A DNA stretch of 15,944 bases from a virus (IMGVR_UViG_2713897073_000008); one strand, 5' to 3'. Shown: positions 2,655 to 11,927, counted from the first letter of the stretch. A program made the numbers and translations. The notes: a model not told the origin generated them from the sequence alone.

Positions 2655-3235
2655 ATCGACTTTATACTTTTCAGGTTCAGCCTGTTGCTCTCATCACTGG
2701 TCATGGGAATAAAGTCCGGCTCGAGCGCCTCCAGCCAGAAATGAACACCGGCAGAAGGCGTCAGGCTGTTTATGCGCCCGGAAACCATCTGGGCAAACAC
2801 CTCACCATCGCGCAGCCAGGTACGCAGCATCAGACGTTCCAGCATCGGACGGGTAAACTGCCCGGTGACCTCCGGACTGACAGACCATTCACTCCATCGG
2901 GTGCGTATCTCCGCTGCCAGATCACGGGCAATGGCCCCATTGCGTAATACCGGATGTGGCTCGACAATAATCCCGTTTTTCCCCACCACCCGTTCTTCCA
3001 GCTTGTCAAATACACCAATGACCAGATCGTGGTTGTTATCAAGGTAACGGGCCTGCTCACGTAACGACACGGCCCCGTACTGGCTTAACTGATCGGCAGT
3101 TCGGTTCTCCCGTCGGGCTTTGTGTGTCCGCGTCGTTTTTACGGCCTCATAAGCCTGGATCACCGCACGGGAACGCAGCCTTGCCGCTTTCCATCCTGGT
3201 GAAAAAACGCCAATCACATCATCAAGAATTGCCAT
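2606..3235 (-). CDS. Phage portal protein-like, N-terminal region only (209 aa); apparently truncated or frameshifted
   Basis: Arg-rich N-terminus followed by SLREQARYLDNNHDLVIGVFDKLEERVVGKNGI, resembling the conserved N-terminal motif of lambda-family portal proteins as I recall it. The ORF is far too short for a portal (~500+ aa). Start overlaps the end of the upstream ORF, as is typical of phage head genes. Confidence 0.4.
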   Translation of the reverse strand: MAILDDVIGVFSPGWKAARLRSRAVIQAYEAVKTTRTHKARRENRTADQLSQYGAVSLREQARYLDNNHDLVIGVFDKLEERVVGKNGIIVEPHPVLRNGAIARDLAAEIRTRWSEWSVSPEVTGQFTRPMLERLMLRTWLRDGEVFAQMVSGRINSLTPSAGVHFWLEALEPDFIPMTSDESNRLNLKSIKSICMLIQPESILTATLI

Positions 3236-3557
3236 CAGAACCTCGCCAGCCGGTAATCGAGTTATCAGAACTGTTAATTTTTATGGTATACCGCGCCTCT
3301 GAACAGGGGCGCGTTTCTGGCAACAGCTCGTCCCCTTCACATAACCCGGCAGCAACATCCAGGAAGACCTGTCTGATGCTCCTTCTGGCTGCTGCCTCAT
3401 AAAACTCCAGCGCTGCACCTTCAACACGGTCCAGCGAGATGTCCAGGTCAAAAATTTCACCGTCAAAGCGTTTTTTGTCCCGTAACGCTAAAGTTACCGT
3501 AACTTTATTCTCAAAATTGCGGATCCCTTTCACAATCAGTTCATAGTTTTGAGTCAT
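3222..3557 (-). CDS. Hypothetical phage protein (111 aa), immediately downstream of holin and overlapping the portal-like ORF start
   Basis: ATG at 3557 sits 4 nt after the holin stop with GGAGAG about 10 nt upstream. It occupies the position where endolysin or terminase/head-completion genes would be expected but has no lysozyme-like motif. Confidence 0.5.
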   Translation of the reverse strand: MTQNYELIVKGIRNFENKVTVTLALRDKKRFDGEIFDLDISLDRVEGAALEFYEAAARRSIRQVFLDVAAGLCEGDELLPETRPCSEARYTIKINSSDNSITGWRGSDGNS

Positions 3558-3561
3558 TGAA

Positions 3562-3777
3562 TTACTCTCCCCGTGCAGCCTTACGCTTGTCTTCTCTGAT
3601 TTTGAAGTACAGATTTGTCAGATAAGTCAGGAAGCCCAGAACCAGACTCCCCAGTACACCAATCGCAGCCCACTGTGACGGACTGACCTGATCAAGCCAC
3701 TGTAAAAACCAGTAGCCAGCACTGCCTGCGGAGGTGCCATAGGCAATGCCCGTTGAAATTTTGTCCATGGATTTCAT
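3562..3777 (-). CDS. Pinholin, phage 21 S21 family (71 aa; dual-start motif M1-K-S-M4)
   Basis: [71 protein letters not shown]: two hydrophobic segments (first Gly/Ala/Ser-rich, SAR-like), charged C-terminus, Met1/Met4 dual start as in S21-71/S21-68. Closely matches my recollection of the S21 pinholin. Confidence 0.8.
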
Positions 3778-4303: not shown

Positions 4304-4379
4304 TGGTGGCCCTTGCTGGATTTGAACCAGCGACCTGGCGATTATGAGTCGCTCGCTCTCACCACTGAGCTAAAGGGCC
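4304..4379 (-). tRNA. tRNA with anticodon CAU, most like tRNA-Ile2 (lysidine-modified, AUA-decoding; ileX/ileZ type) rather than elongator Met
   Basis: Reverse complement GGCCCUUUAGCUCAGUGGUGAGAGCGAGCGACUCAUAAUCGCCAGGUCGCUGGUUCAAAUCCAGCAAGGGCCACCA; very similar to E. coli ileX as I recall it. Anticodon loop CUCAUAA. Confidence 0.8.
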
Positions 4380-4388
4380 GGGCGCAGG

Positions 4389-4417
4389 ATAATAACGTTA
4401 CGAAATCAATGTTGCAA
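4389..4417 (-). promoter_or_regulatory. Putative sigma70 promoter for the tRNA cluster (-35 TTGCAA, 17-bp spacer, -10 TATTAT), ending about 9 nt upstream of tRNA-Ile 5' end
   Basis: Minus-strand reading TTGCAA(4417-4412) cattgatttcgtaacgt TATTAT(4394-4389) cctgcgccc then the tRNA 5' G. Upstream A/T-rich direct repeats AAAAATCACC x2 at about 4422-4450 could be UP-element-like. Confidence 0.3.
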
Positions 4418-4499
4418 GCATTCAAAAATCACCTGGTTAAAAATCACCCTTATCTCCTCCACCAGCGCATTCACCATGTCTATCCGAGATAAGTGACAC

Positions 4500-4524
4500 A
4501 AAAAAACCCGCTTGATGCGGGTTT
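4500..4524 (-). terminator. Intrinsic terminator on the minus strand (CCCGC-AUCAA-GCGGG + U7); tR'-like, upstream of the tRNA cluster
   Basis: Plus strand aaaaaaaCCCGCttgatGCGGGttt; on the minus strand the hairpin is followed by a 7-U tract. Confidence 0.45.
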
Positions 4525-4644
4525 AAGTTGTGTGGCGAAGCGACCACTCTTAACAGATTAAGATAGTTTTTGCGTACGCGTTAGTGATTTTTTCATAATT
4601 ATCTGTATCCTGTGGCTATTTCTCTTGCGCAAAGGATGCTTTTG

Positions 4645-5523
4645 ATGACGCAGCAACTCGAAAACATGCCAATAACAGAAATCGAAATTGCCTACGGTGG
4701 AGAGGCATACGCAGATAATCAGATCGACGCGAAAACATTAGGCGAAGCCTTAACCTCTCTTAGTGCCCTGATTGAACACGCCGAAAAAATAATTAATGGC
4801 GAAACAGCAGAGCCGAAAGTCAACATCAAGGCAACAAAAGAAGGTTCATTTACTTTGCTTGTTGCTGTGATGGGGAGCATAAAAACTATTAACGCCCTTG
4901 GCCTCGTTGCAGGTGGTGGAGTTGCCGCAGGTGGCGTACTCGGGATAATCGAATGGCTCAAAGGGCGTAAAATCAGCTCCATTGTCGTCGATGAACAAAA
5001 AGATACAGCAGAAATCGAAGTGGATGGTGAGAAGGTTAAATGCAGTAACGACATTCAAAAATTAATAACCAGTCCAATCATCCGAAAAGAACTGGATAAA
5101 TTAATCTATAAACCCCTGCAGACTGAAAAACCATCCACGTTCTCAGTTTCACAGCAGAAGCATAAGGTAGTCAGGGTGACGCAAGCTGAAGCAGTAAGTT
5201 TTAAAACTGCAAAATCCACCTTTGTCGAGAAAACGCACGTAACGACACGCCAAGCTAATGTACATTTTGCTAATGTTCGATTCAAGCAAGGCAAAAGCTG
5301 GGATATCATCCTGCCAAATGGCGAAGAAGTTAGCGCATCTATGAAAGATGAGGCTTTTCTTGAACGGGTTGAACACAACCAAGCAGCATTCTGTAAGGGT
5401 GATCTTTTTGTTGTAGAACTGACAGAAACAACAAAAGAAACAAATGGCGCGCTGTCTAAACCACGCTATAGTATTACTAAGGTTATACGCCACAGAGCGG
5501 CGGCAGATAGGAAACTACTTTAA
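4645..5523 (+). CDS. Hypothetical protein (292 aa from ATG 4645; ORF open from GTG 4612) with central glycine-zipper hydrophobic segment; first gene of AT-rich three-gene operon
   Basis: AAGGA SD 9 nt upstream of ATG 4645. Central FTLLVAVMGSIKTINALGLVAGGGVAAGGVLGIIEWL (GxxxG-rich) flanked by charged, K/T/E-rich soluble regions. Antisense frames carry only short shadow ORFs. No recognisable catalytic motif. Confidence 0.6.
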   Translation: MTQQLENMPITEIEIAYGGEAYADNQIDAKTLGEALTSLSALIEHAEKIINGETAEPKVNIKATKEGSFTLLVAVMGSIKTINALGLVAGGGVAAGGVLGIIEWLKGRKISSIVVDEQKDTAEIEVDGEKVKCSNDIQKLITSPIIRKELDKLIYKPLQTEKPSTFSVSQQKHKVVRVTQAEAVSFKTAKSTFVEKTHVTTRQANVHFANVRFKQGKSWDIILPNGEEVSASMKDEAFLERVEHNQAAFCKGDLFVVELTETTKETNGALSKPRYSITKVIRHRAAADRKLL

Positions 5524-5526
5524 ATC

Positions 5527-5772
5527 ATGTCAATCCTAAGCATTATGCTTTACATCACTGTATTCATGGCTGTCGCAGCGACGGTCAGATATGCTGTGCT
5601 TAGGTTCTTGGTTTGGGTAAAGCCGAATGCGTATATTGAACTAACCTACACCGATCCTGAAGGCAGAACCGCTAAAAGGAAAGTCAGCGTTAGAAACGAA
5701 AATGACGCAGAAGAGTTGGCGCTACTGCTACGCGAACTCAAAACTCGCAACGAAGCAAGTGCAGGAAGGTGA
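5527..5772 (+). CDS. Small membrane protein (81 aa; one N-terminal TM helix, charged C-terminal tail)
   Basis: Starts 4 nt after the upstream stop. ILSIMLYITVFMAVAATVRYAVLRFLVWV hydrophobic helix, then K/R/E-rich tail. Confidence 0.55.
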   Translation: MSILSIMLYITVFMAVAATVRYAVLRFLVWVKPNAYIELTYTDPEGRTAKRKVSVRNENDAEELALLLRELKTRNEASAGR

Positions 5773-6159
5773 ATGGCGAACACTAAATCCTACCTGGCAA
5801 TGCAGGCATGGTTTACCACCCTTATCACTGCGGGATTGAATTTCCTTTTTGACTGGCTTCCTCAATTAGCCTTCTTCAAATCATTGGCGCCTGGAGCTGC
5901 TGTCGGCTTATCTCATGTGGTAATTCTTCTTATCGCTTACATAGGTTTGCCTACGCTTAATGATGTAAGAATGAAAAGGGAAATAAAAACGGCCAGAAAA
6001 TTCATCACGAACTGCCTGGCCAACCCTAACCTAACACCAGACCAAATTGCGCACTACAACCAATGTCTTATCGATCTAGACAATAAGCTATTAAAAAACA
6101 TAAATATTCGTATTGATGCTTTATCTGACGCCGAATCGAAAGCTCAAGCAAACGAGTAG
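5773..6159 (+). CDS. Small membrane protein (128 aa; two predicted TM helices, soluble C-terminal domain)
   Basis: ATG directly abuts the upstream TGA (tgaATG), indicating translational coupling. Hydrophobic helices at about residues 10-32 and 40-62. The stop lies only 13 bp from the convergent Q gene stop. Confidence 0.55.
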   Translation: MANTKSYLAMQAWFTTLITAGLNFLFDWLPQLAFFKSLAPGAAVGLSHVVILLIAYIGLPTLNDVRMKREIKTARKFITNCLANPNLTPDQIAHYNQCLIDLDNKLLKNINIRIDALSDAESKAQANE

Positions 6160-6172
6160 TAACAGTCATAAC

Positions 6173-6529
6173 TTATGATAGAATCAAGCATATACATCCA
6201 TCAATAAAGCCTAATGCAGTTTGCAGCTCCTTTCTTATAGTTCCATCTGAGCACCTGCGTTTCTTCGCGATTGAGCGTAGAGAAACACCAATAACAAAGT
6301 GAGCTATGAGCAGCTCATATTCCTCTGGTTTATACTTTCGCAACCGAGCCACACAACCGTCTATCATGATGCCTTCATCATCATCACACTGGAGACGTGA
6401 CTTTTTGCCATGTGGCAAAAGCCTCTTGAAGCCCGCTGCTATCGGTTGCCAATCGACACCGCTATTTTCTGCTGCAGCCCATGCCCCCCAGCGATCTAAA
6501 ACCTCATACATATCACGCCCCATTACCAT
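6173..6529 (-). CDS. Phage antitermination protein Q (Q82/QuuD-like family)
   Basis: Contains LDRWGAWAA...DW..IAAGFK and the CDDD...C motif I associate with the short Q family of lambdoid prophages. Sits immediately downstream of rusA, the canonical nin-Q arrangement. Start may be an internal Met (6521 or 6511). Confidence 0.7.
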   Translation of the reverse strand: MVMGRDMYEVLDRWGAWAAAENSGVDWQPIAAGFKRLLPHGKKSRLQCDDDEGIMIDGCVARLRKYKPEEYELLIAHFVIGVSLRSIAKKRRCSDGTIRKELQTALGFIDGCICLILS

Positions 6530-8321: not shown

Positions 8322-9443
8322 CTAGTGAATTTTGCCTCTAAGAGTTCGGTAAGATTGTAGTGAAACAACATCACCACTTCCTGGCAGTTCATGAACCGCA
8401 GGAAGATCATCTCCTACTAACTCATAAAAAATGTCCACTTCTATATCCATTTCATCAGCTATACGCTGTGGGTCGTATCCTAACTCTTCAAATAAAAACG
8501 ATAAAGCCCGACGGAATAACTCAGGACGCTCATGAGGGATTAGATAATCTTCTTTTTCATCAATAGCTTCCCCTTTCCGTTTCAACCCCATAAATGCAGT
8601 TCTGTACTGCTCATCAGTCAAAAGTCCTAATTGATGAGCCCTGTAAACAATGGCAGCCTTACTTACTTTCCATGTCAACTTAAATTGGCTTAGTCCCTGC
8701 CAATTTATCCTCCCCCCCACAGGTCTTGGAAAATATTTCGCCATCGACGTTCTGGGAAGCAACAGAGCAGAGGCAAAACGGTTTGCCTGGGATTCAGTTA
8801 ATCTATCCCCAGTAGAAATTCCTTCATGAAGAATCAAATGGGCAACCTCATGAGCAATATCAAAGCGTTGCCTACAAGGTGAATTTTTAGCTGTATTTCG
8901 AACAATAAAAGGCCTTCGTAGAGGAACAGACAGTGCATCTACTTCATCCGAAACGGAGTCAAATGAAGTAACAAACGCCCCAAGTTTCTCGGCAAGGCGA
9001 GTCATATTTTCAATTGGGCCAAAGCCTAAGCCCCACTCAATACGACATTTTTCTGCCGCTCGCTCGATATCTTCTTGTGTATGGACACGAAATTCAGGAA
9101 ATCGAACAGGTGACAAATTAAGGTTATCTTCAAATACATCAATAAAACGACGATAAAACTCAGCCTTAGCGAGTGTTGATAGCTTCGTTGACATCCTTGT
9201 CGAGGCGCGTTTACGAAAATGTACAATCTCTTCATTAACAGGAGAATGTTCCTGCCCTTCGAAAAAGGCGGGCTTCACGCGCAAAACCTCGGCTAATTTA
9301 TTTATAAGCTCTGGGGATGGAGTAGCTGAACCAGACTCCAGTCGCTGTACATACTGGCGTGTTTTTTCAACCTTCTCAGCAACCTGCTCCAGAGATAGCT
9401 CGTGATACAGACGAGCAAGTCTTAAATTAGTACCGTTAAACAC
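8322..9443 (-). CDS. XRE-family HTH fused to ImmA/IrrE-type (HExxH) zinc metallopeptidase domain, 373 aa; RosmerTA RmrA-like candidate
   Basis: N-terminal HTH (LSLEQVAEKVEKTRQYVQRLESG) and central HEVAH zinc-binding motif in the context typical of the ImmA/IrrE (M78/DUF955) family. GTG start with GGGTGA upstream, 10 nt after the upstream gene stop. Confidence 0.75.
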   Translation of the reverse strand: MFNGTNLRLARLYHELSLEQVAEKVEKTRQYVQRLESGSATPSPELINKLAEVLRVKPAFFEGQEHSPVNEEIVHFRKRASTRMSTKLSTLAKAEFYRRFIDVFEDNLNLSPVRFPEFRVHTQEDIERAAEKCRIEWGLGFGPIENMTRLAEKLGAFVTSFDSVSDEVDALSVPLRRPFIVRNTAKNSPCRQRFDIAHEVAHLILHEGISTGDRLTESQANRFASALLLPRTSMAKYFPRPVGGRINWQGLSQFKLTWKVSKAAIVYRAHQLGLLTDEQYRTAFMGLKRKGEAIDEKEDYLIPHERPELFRRALSFLFEELGYDPQRIADEMDIEVDIFYELVGDDLPAVHELPGSGDVVSLQSYRTLRGKIH

Positions 9444-9453
9444 ATTTCACCCA

Positions 9454-10047
9454 CTATTTGCTATTTTGTTTCTTTTCCTTCTCAGTCTTAGACGCACTGA
9501 TAGGTTCTAGTTCGATAGGTACCGGTGCTGGAGGTACATCATCGACAGAGTTCAGCATAACAACACGGTCCGCACCATATGTCCAAGTTGACACGATCTC
9601 ACCAAACACGTTATAGCCATTAAAAATGACTCTACCACCCTCGCCTTCAAATTCAGGCTTTTCAACCACAAAGCGATGCATAGTTGGAGTAGTCTCCTCT
9701 GACTCAAAGAGTCGATCAGCATCATTTCTTTTGAAAAAACCGCGTTTCTTGGGGTTATCTGCGTCATCAGTAAAGAAACGAATAGGGACATTCCCAATTG
9801 AAAACGTAAGATCCATGCCAGGATTAAGTAGTCTTAACCAGTCATATGTCTTTCGTACGCACATTTGTAGCAACGCCTGCCGCTGACGCCCAAATGTACA
9901 ACCACCACGAGTGTAATTATCATCATAGGGCGATGACAATAACTCATGAGTAATATCCTGTATCCTGAGCAACTCCTCAGCTATAATGGTTAAACGCACC
10001 TCTGTTAACTCAGGAAAGAACTCCCAAGGGAATGGATGGTTCTGCAT
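9454..10047 (-). CDS. Hypothetical protein (197 aa from ATG 10047; ORF table extends to TTG 10095), upstream partner of the HTH-peptidase; candidate toxin/effector
   Basis: GGAG SD 9 nt upstream of ATG 10047. No TM segment and no recognisable motif. Visibly AT-rich, co-oriented and tightly linked with 8322..9443. Confidence 0.55.
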   Translation of the reverse strand: MQNHPFPWEFFPELTEVRLTIIAEELLRIQDITHELLSSPYDDNYTRGGCTFGRQRQALLQMCVRKTYDWLRLLNPGMDLTFSIGNVPIRFFTDDADNPKKRGFFKRNDADRLFESEETTPTMHRFVVEKPEFEGEGGRVIFNGYNVFGEIVSTWTYGADRVVMLNSVDDVPPAPVPIELEPISASKTEKEKKQNSK

Positions 10048-10082
10048 AGACACTTCTCCGCCTAATCCGTGCAAAAAACGAC

Positions 10083-10128
10083 TTTTGTCAACCAAGATAT
10101 TGGTGCATATTCATAATTTTGTCAACCA
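10083..10128 (-). promoter_or_regulatory. Two direct repeats of TGGTTGACAAAA (each containing a consensus -35 TTGACA) immediately upstream of the 197 aa gene; candidate promoter/operator
   Basis: Minus-strand TGGTTGACAAAA at 10128-10117 and 10094-10083, 34 bp apart, between the upstream terminator and the start codon. Confidence 0.3.
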
Positions 10129-10152: not shown

Positions 10153-10497
10153 AAGTGCGGGTGCGTTGAGGATGCCTGACACATCAGAGGTGGCGAGGGA
10201 TTTCTCCCTCGCCTGGTCTCTTACTCCTCAGGTTCGTAAGCTGTGAAGACAGCGACCTCCGTCTGGCCGGTTCGGATTCGTACCTCGCAGAGGTCTTTCC
10301 TCGTTATCAGTACCGCAACAATTTCGTATTCATGATTCATTTCATCTAAAACAGTTCATAAACCTAAATAAATTCAAAAAATCACAACACAAATAAATAT
10401 AAATTATCTCATCCTGAAGAACGATAGGATTATTTAGAATTAATAACAATTAATGTAACAATAATTATCAATCCAGATTATTCAAATAAAATGTCAT

Positions 10498-11544
10498 TTA
10501 CCATATGGAGTTGTGAATGAACTTTAATTCATTTTTTATTTTGTTAACAGATAAATTCACGGATGTCCTAACTCTATTCACAGTCATTGCATCTCCTGGA
10601 TTTAACAACTCTAATGGTTTAGACTTAGCACTTGACATTCTGCCACTACCCAGAAAATCATCAAGAATCACAATGTGATTATTAGGATCATCTGTTGTAA
10701 AATTACTAATATTTTGTCGAATTACCTCTCTTACAGCTTCGATGTACATTTTTGTCTGTTGATTTGGTTTATTCCTTGCTCCTGCCACTGTTGACCATCC
10801 GCAATGGGTAATAACCACCATCTGAATTTTTGGTGTATGGCCATCAGACGGCATTATCTTTCTAAATTCTGATGTTGGTTTAGTCAGAGTATCAATAAGT
10901 AATCTTAATGAATTAATCGATTGCTGATCTGTCCTCACTGGAACTATTAAAGCATCTGTTGCATGCCAAGATAAATGCGTCGCTCCAGAGAAAAAAGGTG
11001 ATGTATCAATTAACGCTTTTGTAGTACCAGTTTCAACCATTTCTCTGGCTATTTCTTTCTTCAGAGAAAAAAGAATTGTATCAATAACAACCTGCTGAGT
11101 AGCCCCAGAAATTGTTCTGGCTTGAGCCAGAGCATTCGCCATTTGCGTAGGTAGAAGATAAAGTTGACTATCAGATTGAATAAAATAGTTATTCTTGCCC
11201 GCAAACCAAGCATTAGTTGATGATACTAGCTTTGCAGCACGCGTTGCAAATCCAAGCCCTGGAACAAAATAAGGCATTAAGAGGTCATTTGCAGTTGTGC
11301 TAGACGAAGATGCATAATTATTGTCAAAAAAATATGATAAATTTCCTTGCGGGCACGTATCCACGATTAATGCGTTATCCGCCAAATATGACAGATTAAA
11401 AGTTAAAGATGTCTTACCAATGCCTCCCCGTAAATTACATACTGTATATTTATCATATTTCGGCAAATTAAGACTTCTTACATTACCGTCAGCAACTTCG
11501 AATTGACGCTCTATCAGAGCATTAACATTTGATTCACTAGTCAT
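10498..11544 (-). CDS. ParA/MinD-superfamily P-loop ATPase-like protein with degenerate signature residues (348 aa)
   Basis: Deviant Walker A-like NLRGGIGKTS (R in place of the signature K of KGGxGKT) followed about 20 aa later by ALIVDTCPQGN (ParA/Soj motif LLIDxDPQGN with D to C), and a later ALIDTSP hydrophobic-D motif. Very AT-rich gene with AT-rich flanks. Confidence 0.6.
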   Translation of the reverse strand: MTSESNVNALIERQFEVADGNVRSLNLPKYDKYTVCNLRGGIGKTSLTFNLSYLADNALIVDTCPQGNLSYFFDNNYASSSSTTANDLLMPYFVPGLGFATRAAKLVSSTNAWFAGKNNYFIQSDSQLYLLPTQMANALAQARTISGATQQVVIDTILFSLKKEIAREMVETGTTKALIDTSPFFSGATHLSWHATDALIVPVRTDQQSINSLRLLIDTLTKPTSEFRKIMPSDGHTPKIQMVVITHCGWSTVAGARNKPNQQTKMYIEAVREVIRQNISNFTTDDPNNHIVILDDFLGSGRMSSAKSKPLELLNPGDAMTVNRVRTSVNLSVNKIKNELKFIHNSIW

Positions 11545-11753
11545 ATCGCCACCATTAGTTTTACACTTTTATTGATGATATGGAAAACTAACCTAGTTGT
11601 CAACAATGGATTAAAAAACAAACACACAAGCGTTTATCAAAAGCACCTTGATTGGTGATACTACCGTGTCTTTCAGCCAAACAGTTCAGTATGTAAAGCG
11701 AATCCAACATCAATTAAGAACGTTTTCAGCGCTCCCCCAGTTGTCTAGATGTC

Positions 11754-11927
11754 AAACTTCATGCGCTCTCCTGTCGAAATAAACGTACTGATTAATCATG
11801 CCCAAGGACATTTCGCGTTTTACAGCGATATCACGGCGGGGAACTCCACACTGATGAAGCTTCCGCACTAGCTCAATATCGCTTTGCGGATGTTTTTTTG
11901 ATTGGTTATAACCCCCCCTCTTAACAT
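11754..11927 (-). pseudogene. Short HTH-like ORF (57 aa from ATG; frame open upstream to about 12018 without a start), probable remnant of a DNA-binding gene; contains a C7/G7 homopolymer
   Basis: Minus-strand translation ...SYAVRAKAQELGINRMLRGGGYNQSKKHPQSDIELVRKLHQCGVPRRDIAVKREMSLGMINQYVYFDRRAHEV*. The GVPRRDIAV...SLGMINQYV segment resembles the C-terminal HTH of serine recombinases or transposase OrfA proteins. Below the 60-aa ORF cutoff. Confidence 0.25.

Follow-up and report, generated by a model that had tools for sequence, protein, structure and literature searches.

What is the function of three plus-strand genes that face the antiterminator gene Q in a lambdoid prophage of Escherichia coli? 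The stretch in question, IMGVR_UViG_2713897073_000008, is 15,944 nucleotides (nt) long and is referred to here, at its full length, as the window. Read on its minus strand, it is a lambdoid E. coli prophage carrying cI, cro, replication genes, DUF968, RusA, a Q of the PF06530 family, four tRNAs and a holin. Three plus-strand open reading frames (ORFs), P1, P2 and P3, lie between Q and the tRNA cluster and make up a cassette spanning about 4585-6159, its promoter region beginning at about 4570. A first-pass annotation had described three linked genes between the Q stop and the terminator and tRNA cluster, and the ORFs, the terminator and the tRNAs all proved to be real. It had also read them as a moron-type abortive-infection, exclusion or toxin-immunity module, a central reading that is supported because P1 belongs to the PADLOC family PDC-S42 and is homologous to gp29 of mycobacteriophage MichelleMyBell, the trio moves among prophage slots, and other convergent cargo is found at the same Q. 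In our view, the cassette is probably, though by no means certainly, a prophage-borne abortive-infection or exclusion system of the gp29 family, expressed in the lysogen and representing a three-gene Gram-negative variant.

The homology of P1 to gp29 carries most of this argument. MichelleMyBell (KF986246; PMC4939774), a cluster N mycobacteriophage, encodes a gp29 of 310 residues, which DefenseFinder lists together with its neighbor as MMB_gp29_gp30. In hhalign, a profile of the P1 family and gp29 aligned along the full length of both proteins (270 columns, 98.8% probability, E 7.6e-17), and hmmsearch reached gp29 at E 2.7e-21 with the A4 profile and at 3e-8 with the A1 profile. Among 491 ORFs, the hmmsearch matches were gp29 and three other known P1 homologues, and nothing else, while the negative controls run by the same hhalign method gave 0.1% for RexA, 2.4% for RexB and 0.2% for P3 against gp30. 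By profile comparison, P1, with its 292 residues, is a full-length homologue of gp29.

The PADLOC scan that the first-pass annotation had suggested places P1 in PDC-S42. The corresponding model, PDLC05015, matches P1 at 3.3e-53 (residues 22-299, profile positions 4-294 of 302) and also recovers gp29 (1.6e-16), ORF19 of Lactobacillus phage A2 (7e-77), ORF27 of Listeria phage vB_LmoS_188 (6e-71) and a Vibrio prophage-like element (1e-29), whose P1 homologue had been labelled 'MMB_gp29_gp30__gp29' by its depositors. The PDC families are candidates picked by their embedding in BREX, DISARM or type I restriction-modification (RM) loci (Payne et al. 2024 preprint). A P1 profile search gathered 2,907 clusters at 50% identity (E<=0.001), and the best 150 of these matches are mostly about 290-310 residues long and aligned end to end; the close relatives form 33 clusters, all from Enterobacterales or Orbales where the source names the organism. 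In Gram-positive phages, the homologues occupy lysin-integrase and sie-integrase slots, with A2 ORF19 lying between endolysin and integrase and Listeria ORF27 belonging to the lysogeny module, where its neighbor carries the annotation 'superinfection immunity', and these Firmicutes-phage homologues are solo, without a partner gene. Pfam returned only sub-threshold matches for P1-P3; EACC1 (E 0.016-0.018) was found in one of 29 family members and was dropped, and DUF7946, a family without functional information, matched 11 of 29 remote P1-family members. A profile search of PDB sequences with the P1 family returned only noise, and literature searches returned nothing on PDC-S42, 'LAPAL motif', DUF7946 or WP_000193722.

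In Gram-negative hosts, P1 belongs to a trio. In every sufficiently long Gram-negative locus that was fetched, P1 is directly followed by a P2-like ORF (79-84 residues, with an N-terminal transmembrane (TM) helix) and a P3-like ORF (126-161 residues, with a two-helix hairpin and a helical tail), and the P1-P2-P3 order is retained in about 50 fetched loci. The linkage persists as P1 identity declines from 100% to 37% across Enterobacterales and Orbales, and at about 26% in the Vibrio element, with Escherichia, Citrobacter, Plesiomonas, Enterobacter, Orbaceae and Vibrio as hosts. Four comparisons (dS 0.5-1.6) by the Nei-Gojobori method gave ratios of nonsynonymous to synonymous substitution (dN/dS) of 0.03-0.10 per gene for all three genes, namely 0.03-0.06 for P1 and 0.06-0.10 for each of P2 and P3. 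The three genes are under strong purifying selection and are co-inherited, and P2, which lacks a PGAP annotation in some genomes, is a real gene. The stretch 4400-6200 itself occurs, at 99% identity or above, in 37 of 5,426 complete E. coli genomes, intact prophages included. A scan of genome contigs yielded three loci, and the distant alignment A4 was too diverse to serve for a locus scan.

The surroundings of the trio change from host to host. In Citrobacter prophages, which have other replication modules, it is convergent with the same Q family across an identical 13-bp junction; other E. coli prophages (L007-L012, 8001-9507) carry a second whole version, 52% identical, between hokD and DUF968-RusA-Q in the nin region, co-directional with the early genes; the hokD-DUF968 interval is a region known for variable accessory genes. 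In Plesiomonas, cI immediately precedes the trio, and an operator-like site and an N-like ORF follow it; this position is the lambda rexAB slot. In Orbaceae prophages, the trio has repressor and lipoprotein genes as neighbors and precedes the lysis genes, and in Enterobacter it is found at the cargo end of a serine-recombinase/VapE island without structural genes. The trio is a mobile unit that moves among accessory slots of prophages and a satellite-like island, and its contexts (the rexAB slot, the nin region, the island, the repressor neighbors) are typical of accessory genes expressed in the lysogen.

In the AlphaFold2 model of P1 (pLDDT 78, pTM 0.62), an alpha/beta domain at the N terminus is followed by a middle domain and, at the C terminus, a beta-barrel; P1 as a whole has no match among solved structures, and OB-like domains alone find counterparts. 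P1 is probably a cytoplasmic or peripheral toxic effector or sensor with one or more OB-like beta-barrel domains. The glycine-rich hydrophobic segment that the first-pass annotation had likened to the glycine zippers of membrane-permeabilizing proteins is present at about residues 77-105, but the model renders it as a low-confidence loop joining two short helices, and the pore idea is not supported because the stretch frequently falls under the TM-like hydropathy threshold across the family. Lying next to a conserved WLKGRK motif, it possibly serves in docking to the membrane or to a partner. Hydropathy, together with AlphaFold2 helices in the case of P3, predicts that the small proteins P2 and P3 span the membrane. 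A single N-terminal hydrophobic helix is predicted in P2 and two in P3, the second clear and the first weaker, in agreement with the topology first proposed for these proteins of 81 and 128 residues; the P3 model is all-helical (pLDDT 71; helices 4-28, 39-57, 62-82 and 89-127), including its C-terminal half.

A mechanism can be outlined on this basis. The operon would be expressed in the lysogen from its own promoter, with P1 as a latent toxic effector or sensor that may be held at, or restrained by, P2 and P3 in the inner membrane, where the two small proteins would take the role of gp30. Infection by a sensitive heterologous phage would release or activate the complex, the C-terminal OB-like barrel of P1 being a candidate trigger-binding domain, and the cell would be arrested or suffer membrane damage before any progeny form, an abortive infection in the manner of RexAB. 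With the convergent layout, early rightward transcription through Q would cross the cassette antisense up to the terminator (4524-4504), and this crossing could, speculatively, damp the system during the lytic growth of the prophage itself.

The closest precedent is gp29/gp30. In both systems, one or more genes for small membrane proteins follow or overlap the large gene at once, gp29 being followed by the overlapping gp30, a 67-residue protein with two TM helices, and both systems lie in a prophage accessory region away from structural genes. PMC6426606 describes the MichelleMyBell system as abortive-infection-like and as acting after adsorption and DNA injection, and according to PMC11856565 gp29 is toxic, gp30 is a putative membrane protein and the mechanism is unknown. 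The cassette differs in its identity of about 20%, in its Gram-negative host, and in the replacement of a single two-TM protein by P2, with one TM helix, and P3, with two TM helices and a helical tail. It also differs from PDC-S42, a single-gene candidate whose model is closest to the solo Firmicutes-phage type, whereas P1 here always occurs with P2 and P3. With one characterized actinobacteriophage relative and a PADLOC candidate entry already known, the cassette is not a new kind of system; the earlier description of the module as uncharacterized is right only in part, since gp29/gp30, a distant relative, has already been tested. Neither the P2/P3 partners nor the recurrent site between a PF06530-type Q and the tR' block was found in the databases and papers searched.

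The layout is also like that of lambda RexA/RexB, and of Sbash gp30/31 and CarolAnn gp44/43, in which a soluble protein of about 280-290 residues is paired with one or more small polytopic membrane proteins and expressed from the prophage. The Plesiomonas cassette occupies the exact rexAB slot, from cI to the PL/N region, and the abortive outcome proposed here, exerted via the membrane, is alike. RexB has four TM helices in one protein, whereas three are distributed here over two proteins, and no homology was detected (0.1% for RexA and 2.4% for RexB in hhalign, and no DUF4747 match for P1 in Pfam). A bolder proposal, which we put forward tentatively and regard as rather doubtful, is that P1-P2-P3 constitutes an abortive-infection machine of three components that acts at the membrane, has an origin independent of RexAB and serves the same niche, which in Plesiomonas phages is the rexAB slot itself. 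It would detect phage nucleic acid or protein through an OB-barrel sensor, in a fold arrangement without a solved structure, and act via two dedicated small membrane proteins that are no relatives of gp30. In the same proposal, the site from a PF06530-type Q to the late promoter and terminator would be a general hotspot, as yet undescribed, where lambdoid phages carry convergent defence cargo. The gp29-like family has many members, in phages of Actinobacteria, Firmicutes and Proteobacteria, and its E. coli representative, with a leader of its own and two membrane partners dedicated to it, would offer a tractable model for how the family senses phages and stops growth.

Several observations weigh against a lysogen-expressed defence system of the gp29 family. 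P1 and gp29 share only about 20% identity, so function may have drifted. The P3 profile gave only 0.2% probability against gp30 in a comparison that covered P3 only, sequence tests being weak for TM proteins of 60-130 residues, and with no detectable similarity to gp30 the partner logic of P2 and P3 rests on analogy. The role ascribed to gp29/gp30 is drawn from secondary citations, the experimental defence record of the family is that of the mycobacterial pair, and PDC-S42 has candidate status. Expression of the cassette in the lysogen is something we infer; the conserved leader of its own and the placement after cI in Plesiomonas bear on it, while the promoter-like site falls under the threshold of the consensus scan and has a weak -35 match (3/6). 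The fold of P1 gives no enzymatic or pore clue, and its glycine-rich hydrophobic segment, as modelled, is not a reliable TM helix. Finally, P1 matches NCBIfam NF053583 at 225.3 bits against a curated cutoff of 60, and that family bears the name 'LAPAL motif-containing putative phage structural protein'.

Another explanation, which we consider unlikely, is that of a toxin-immunity or addiction module, in which P1 would be the toxin and P2/P3 a membrane antidote, stabilizing only the prophage or island and providing no phage defence. The tight translational coupling of the genes fits a fixed stoichiometry, other toxin-antitoxin genes lie nearby in some contexts (hokD, ParE/PaaA2, RosmerTA), and PMC11856565 has a toxic gp29 paired with a membrane protein. 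A defence phenotype of abortive type is nonetheless reported for the tested relative in PMC6426606, the family was picked up through its embedding in BREX, DISARM or RM loci, and a solo Firmicutes-phage homologue is a misfit for an obligatory toxin-antidote pair. Addiction and defence roles are not mutually exclusive.

Similarly improbable is superinfection exclusion at the inner membrane, whereby P2/P3 together with P1 would block DNA entry, like SieA, Imm or HK97 gp15, without killing the cell. Two small predicted inner-membrane proteins, positions in lysogeny modules and the 'superinfection immunity' annotation next to the Listeria homologue are all in keeping with it. The part of the cassette that is largest and best conserved is, however, a mostly soluble protein of about 290 residues, solo homologues do without membrane partners, and the MichelleMyBell system is described, in PMC6426606, as acting once DNA has been injected.

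A lysis-associated accessory, such as a lysis-timing regulator, an antiholin or a membrane-disrupting helper, is very unlikely. The genes adjoin holin or endolysin genes in the window, Citrobacter, Orbaceae, phage A2 and MichelleMyBell, and the cassette includes small TM proteins; but it lies here on the strand opposite to the lysis genes (holin 3562-3777) with its own leader, occurs elsewhere in the rexAB slot, the nin region or an island without lysis genes, and has no holin or spanin family match in P2/P3, the lysin-integrase junction being a general cargo site. That P1 is a virion structural protein, which the NF053583 match (225 bits against 60) suggests by name and which the first-pass annotation had set down as contrary to its reading, is scarcely credible, given that the LAPAL motif is absent from P1 and present in only 28 of 150 P1 relatives, that the P1 gene never lies within a head/tail module in the loci examined and is antisense to the late operon here, and that homologues occur on a small island without structural genes and in lysogeny modules. 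The family name is probably misleading.

The features of the cassette and its flanks are collected in the table.

Features of the cassette and its flanks in the window (positions counted from the first letter of the window)
Feature	Position	Strand	Description
Intrinsic terminator	4504-4524	-	AAACCCGCATCAAGCGGGTTT + T-run; tR'-like; left boundary of cargo site
Conserved flank of cargo site	4525-4584	.	Common to PF06530-Q phages with different cargo
Cassette promoter-like site	4570-4599	+	Putative; TTGCGT (4570-4575), 18 nt, CATAAT
Cassette-specific leader	4585-4644	+	Invariant TTATCTGTATCCT (4599-4611), ribosome-binding site (RBS) AAAGGA; alignment of window, Citrobacter and Plesiomonas
P1	4645-5523	+	292 residues; MichelleMyBell gp29-like; PADLOC PDC-S42, NCBIfam NF053583, phrog_3243
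P2	5527-5772	+	81 residues; one predicted N-terminal TM helix and a charged C-terminal tail; phrog_27630
P3	5773-6159	+	128 residues; predicted two-helix membrane hairpin, then helical cytoplasmic half; phrog_26468
Q antiterminator, PF06530 family	6173-6529	-	Convergent with cassette; right boundary of cargo site

The first-pass annotation had left the length of P1 between 292 and 303 residues. The shorter form stands, starting at ATG 4645 behind an RBS at 4631-4636; PGAP picks the same start, and the homologues align from this ATG onward and all start at or after it. The 303-residue form is not supported, since the extension from GTG 4612 is not conserved and the Plesiomonas orthologue has an in-frame TAA there. 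The first intergenic gap, given as 4 nt, is 3 nt from the P1 stop to the P2 ATG, while the second is indeed 0 nt, the P2 TGA abutting the P3 ATG (tgaATG). An AT-rich insert ending 13 bp from a convergent Q was also correctly described: the cassette has a G+C content of 43.0% against 52.7% in Q-RusA-DUF968, and 13 bp separate the end of the P3 stop at 6159 from the Q stop codon at 6173. The Q of the window matches the PF06530 antiterminator family at 1e-44.

In being variable cargo between Q and the lysis genes with expression signals of its own, the cassette is like the morons that follow Q elsewhere (stx in Stx phages, nmpC in DLP12); nmpC, on the K-12 map, is also oriented against Q. The cassette differs in lying between Q and the tR'-like terminator and in being convergent with Q. 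Convergent cargo unrelated to the cassette is carried by other phages of this Q family, with three genes in Stx1_499, an Stx1a phage, and one gene in mEp460, none of which has a Pfam or PADLOC match. Between PF06530-Q phages that differ in cargo, homology breaks off at the Q stop and resumes in a block of about 81 nt, 4504-4584, that ends in the tR'-like terminator; its counterparts lie at about 5037-5126 in locus L024 and about 4372-4461 in L025. The flank within this block is 86-92% identical in blastn to Stx1_499 and mEp460, just beyond their cargo, and is likewise found with the cassette in Citrobacter and Plesiomonas. The same pair of conserved flanks encloses at least three unrelated sets of cargo, and the interval from a PF06530 Q to the tR'-like terminator has the look of a hotspot for cargo exchange, which could be mined in lambdoid phages for more defence genes.

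The transcription signals around this site can be read only in part. The terminator is strong in a terminator scan and lies in a segment, 4400-4524, that is 95-98% identical to phages with a PF06323 Q. In the cargo-free vB_EcoM-606R7, which has a PF06323 Q, a promoter-like TTGCAA-17-TATATT overlapping the Q end is followed by the same terminator at a distance of about 50 nt (about 70 nt if measured to the T-run), and the terminator is best read as tR' because of this position. The block 4504-4584 may be a late-promoter-proximal leader (qut) specific to the PF06530 Q family on the minus strand, and if it is the PR' leader, the first-pass claim that PR' and qut lie beyond the insert would be right. 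That claim is likely, with a PF06530-Q-specific block just upstream of the tR'-like terminator, but no convincing -35/-10 was found on the minus strand of the flank block. A promoter-like site overlapping the Q stop (6204-6175) was considered as PR' and rejected, as it is not conserved in Citrobacter. The block 4504-4584 may, additionally or alternatively, provide the TTGCGT -35 of a cargo promoter to which each cargo brings its own -10, equivalent sites being TTGCGT-17-TATATT in Stx1_499, TTGCGT-17-TAAACT in mEp460 and TTGCGT-18-TATGGT in Citrobacter. A leader of 4523-4644 owned wholly by the cassette was abandoned when 4504-4584 proved common to other cargo.

Beyond the terminator, at 4421-4446 and 4389-4417 on the minus strand, are two direct repeats of GGTGATTTTT with 16 nt between them, followed by a promoter-like TTGCAA-17-TATTAT that stops a few bases short of the first tRNA; mEp460 carries an analogous repeat pair, CTGGCTTTTTA x2. 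This repeat and promoter-like element may serve as a promoter for the tRNAs or be related to Q. PGAP annotates a 36-residue 'antiterminator' in related genomes at the equivalent of 4437-4547 (minus strand), which looks spurious because the ORF runs straight through the terminator hairpin. The tRNA at 4304-4379 (minus strand) is called tRNA-Met (CAT) by ARAGORN and tRNA-Ile by PGAP for the identical gene of strain E66; it is presumably a lysidine-dependent tRNA-Ile2 as carried by Stx phages.

The same prophage also carries, in its nin region, a RosmerTA-type defence pair at 8322-9443 and 9454-10095 on the minus strand (PADLOC RmrA 4e-201, RmrT 7e-92), consisting of a protein with helix-turn-helix and M78-peptidase domains and its upstream neighbor. 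At the left end of the window, an Rfam IS009 RNA (RF02111, 129 bits) at 41-244 on the minus strand overlaps an 88-residue ORF at 1-267. To the left of the holin, the segment 324-3557 holds a DUF1327 ORF (3222-3557), a 209-residue ORF, a plus-strand methyltransferase and a 404-residue ORF with no family match, where the E66 relative carries endolysin, terminase and portal instead; the prophage of the window seems truncated or rearranged, since, unlike E66, it has no normal lysis/packaging module there. In the early region, an AT-rich stretch at 10200-11800 (31-38% G+C) contains an ORF at 10498-11544 on the minus strand for a 348-residue ParA/AAA_31-like ATPase, which may be another acquired accessory gene.

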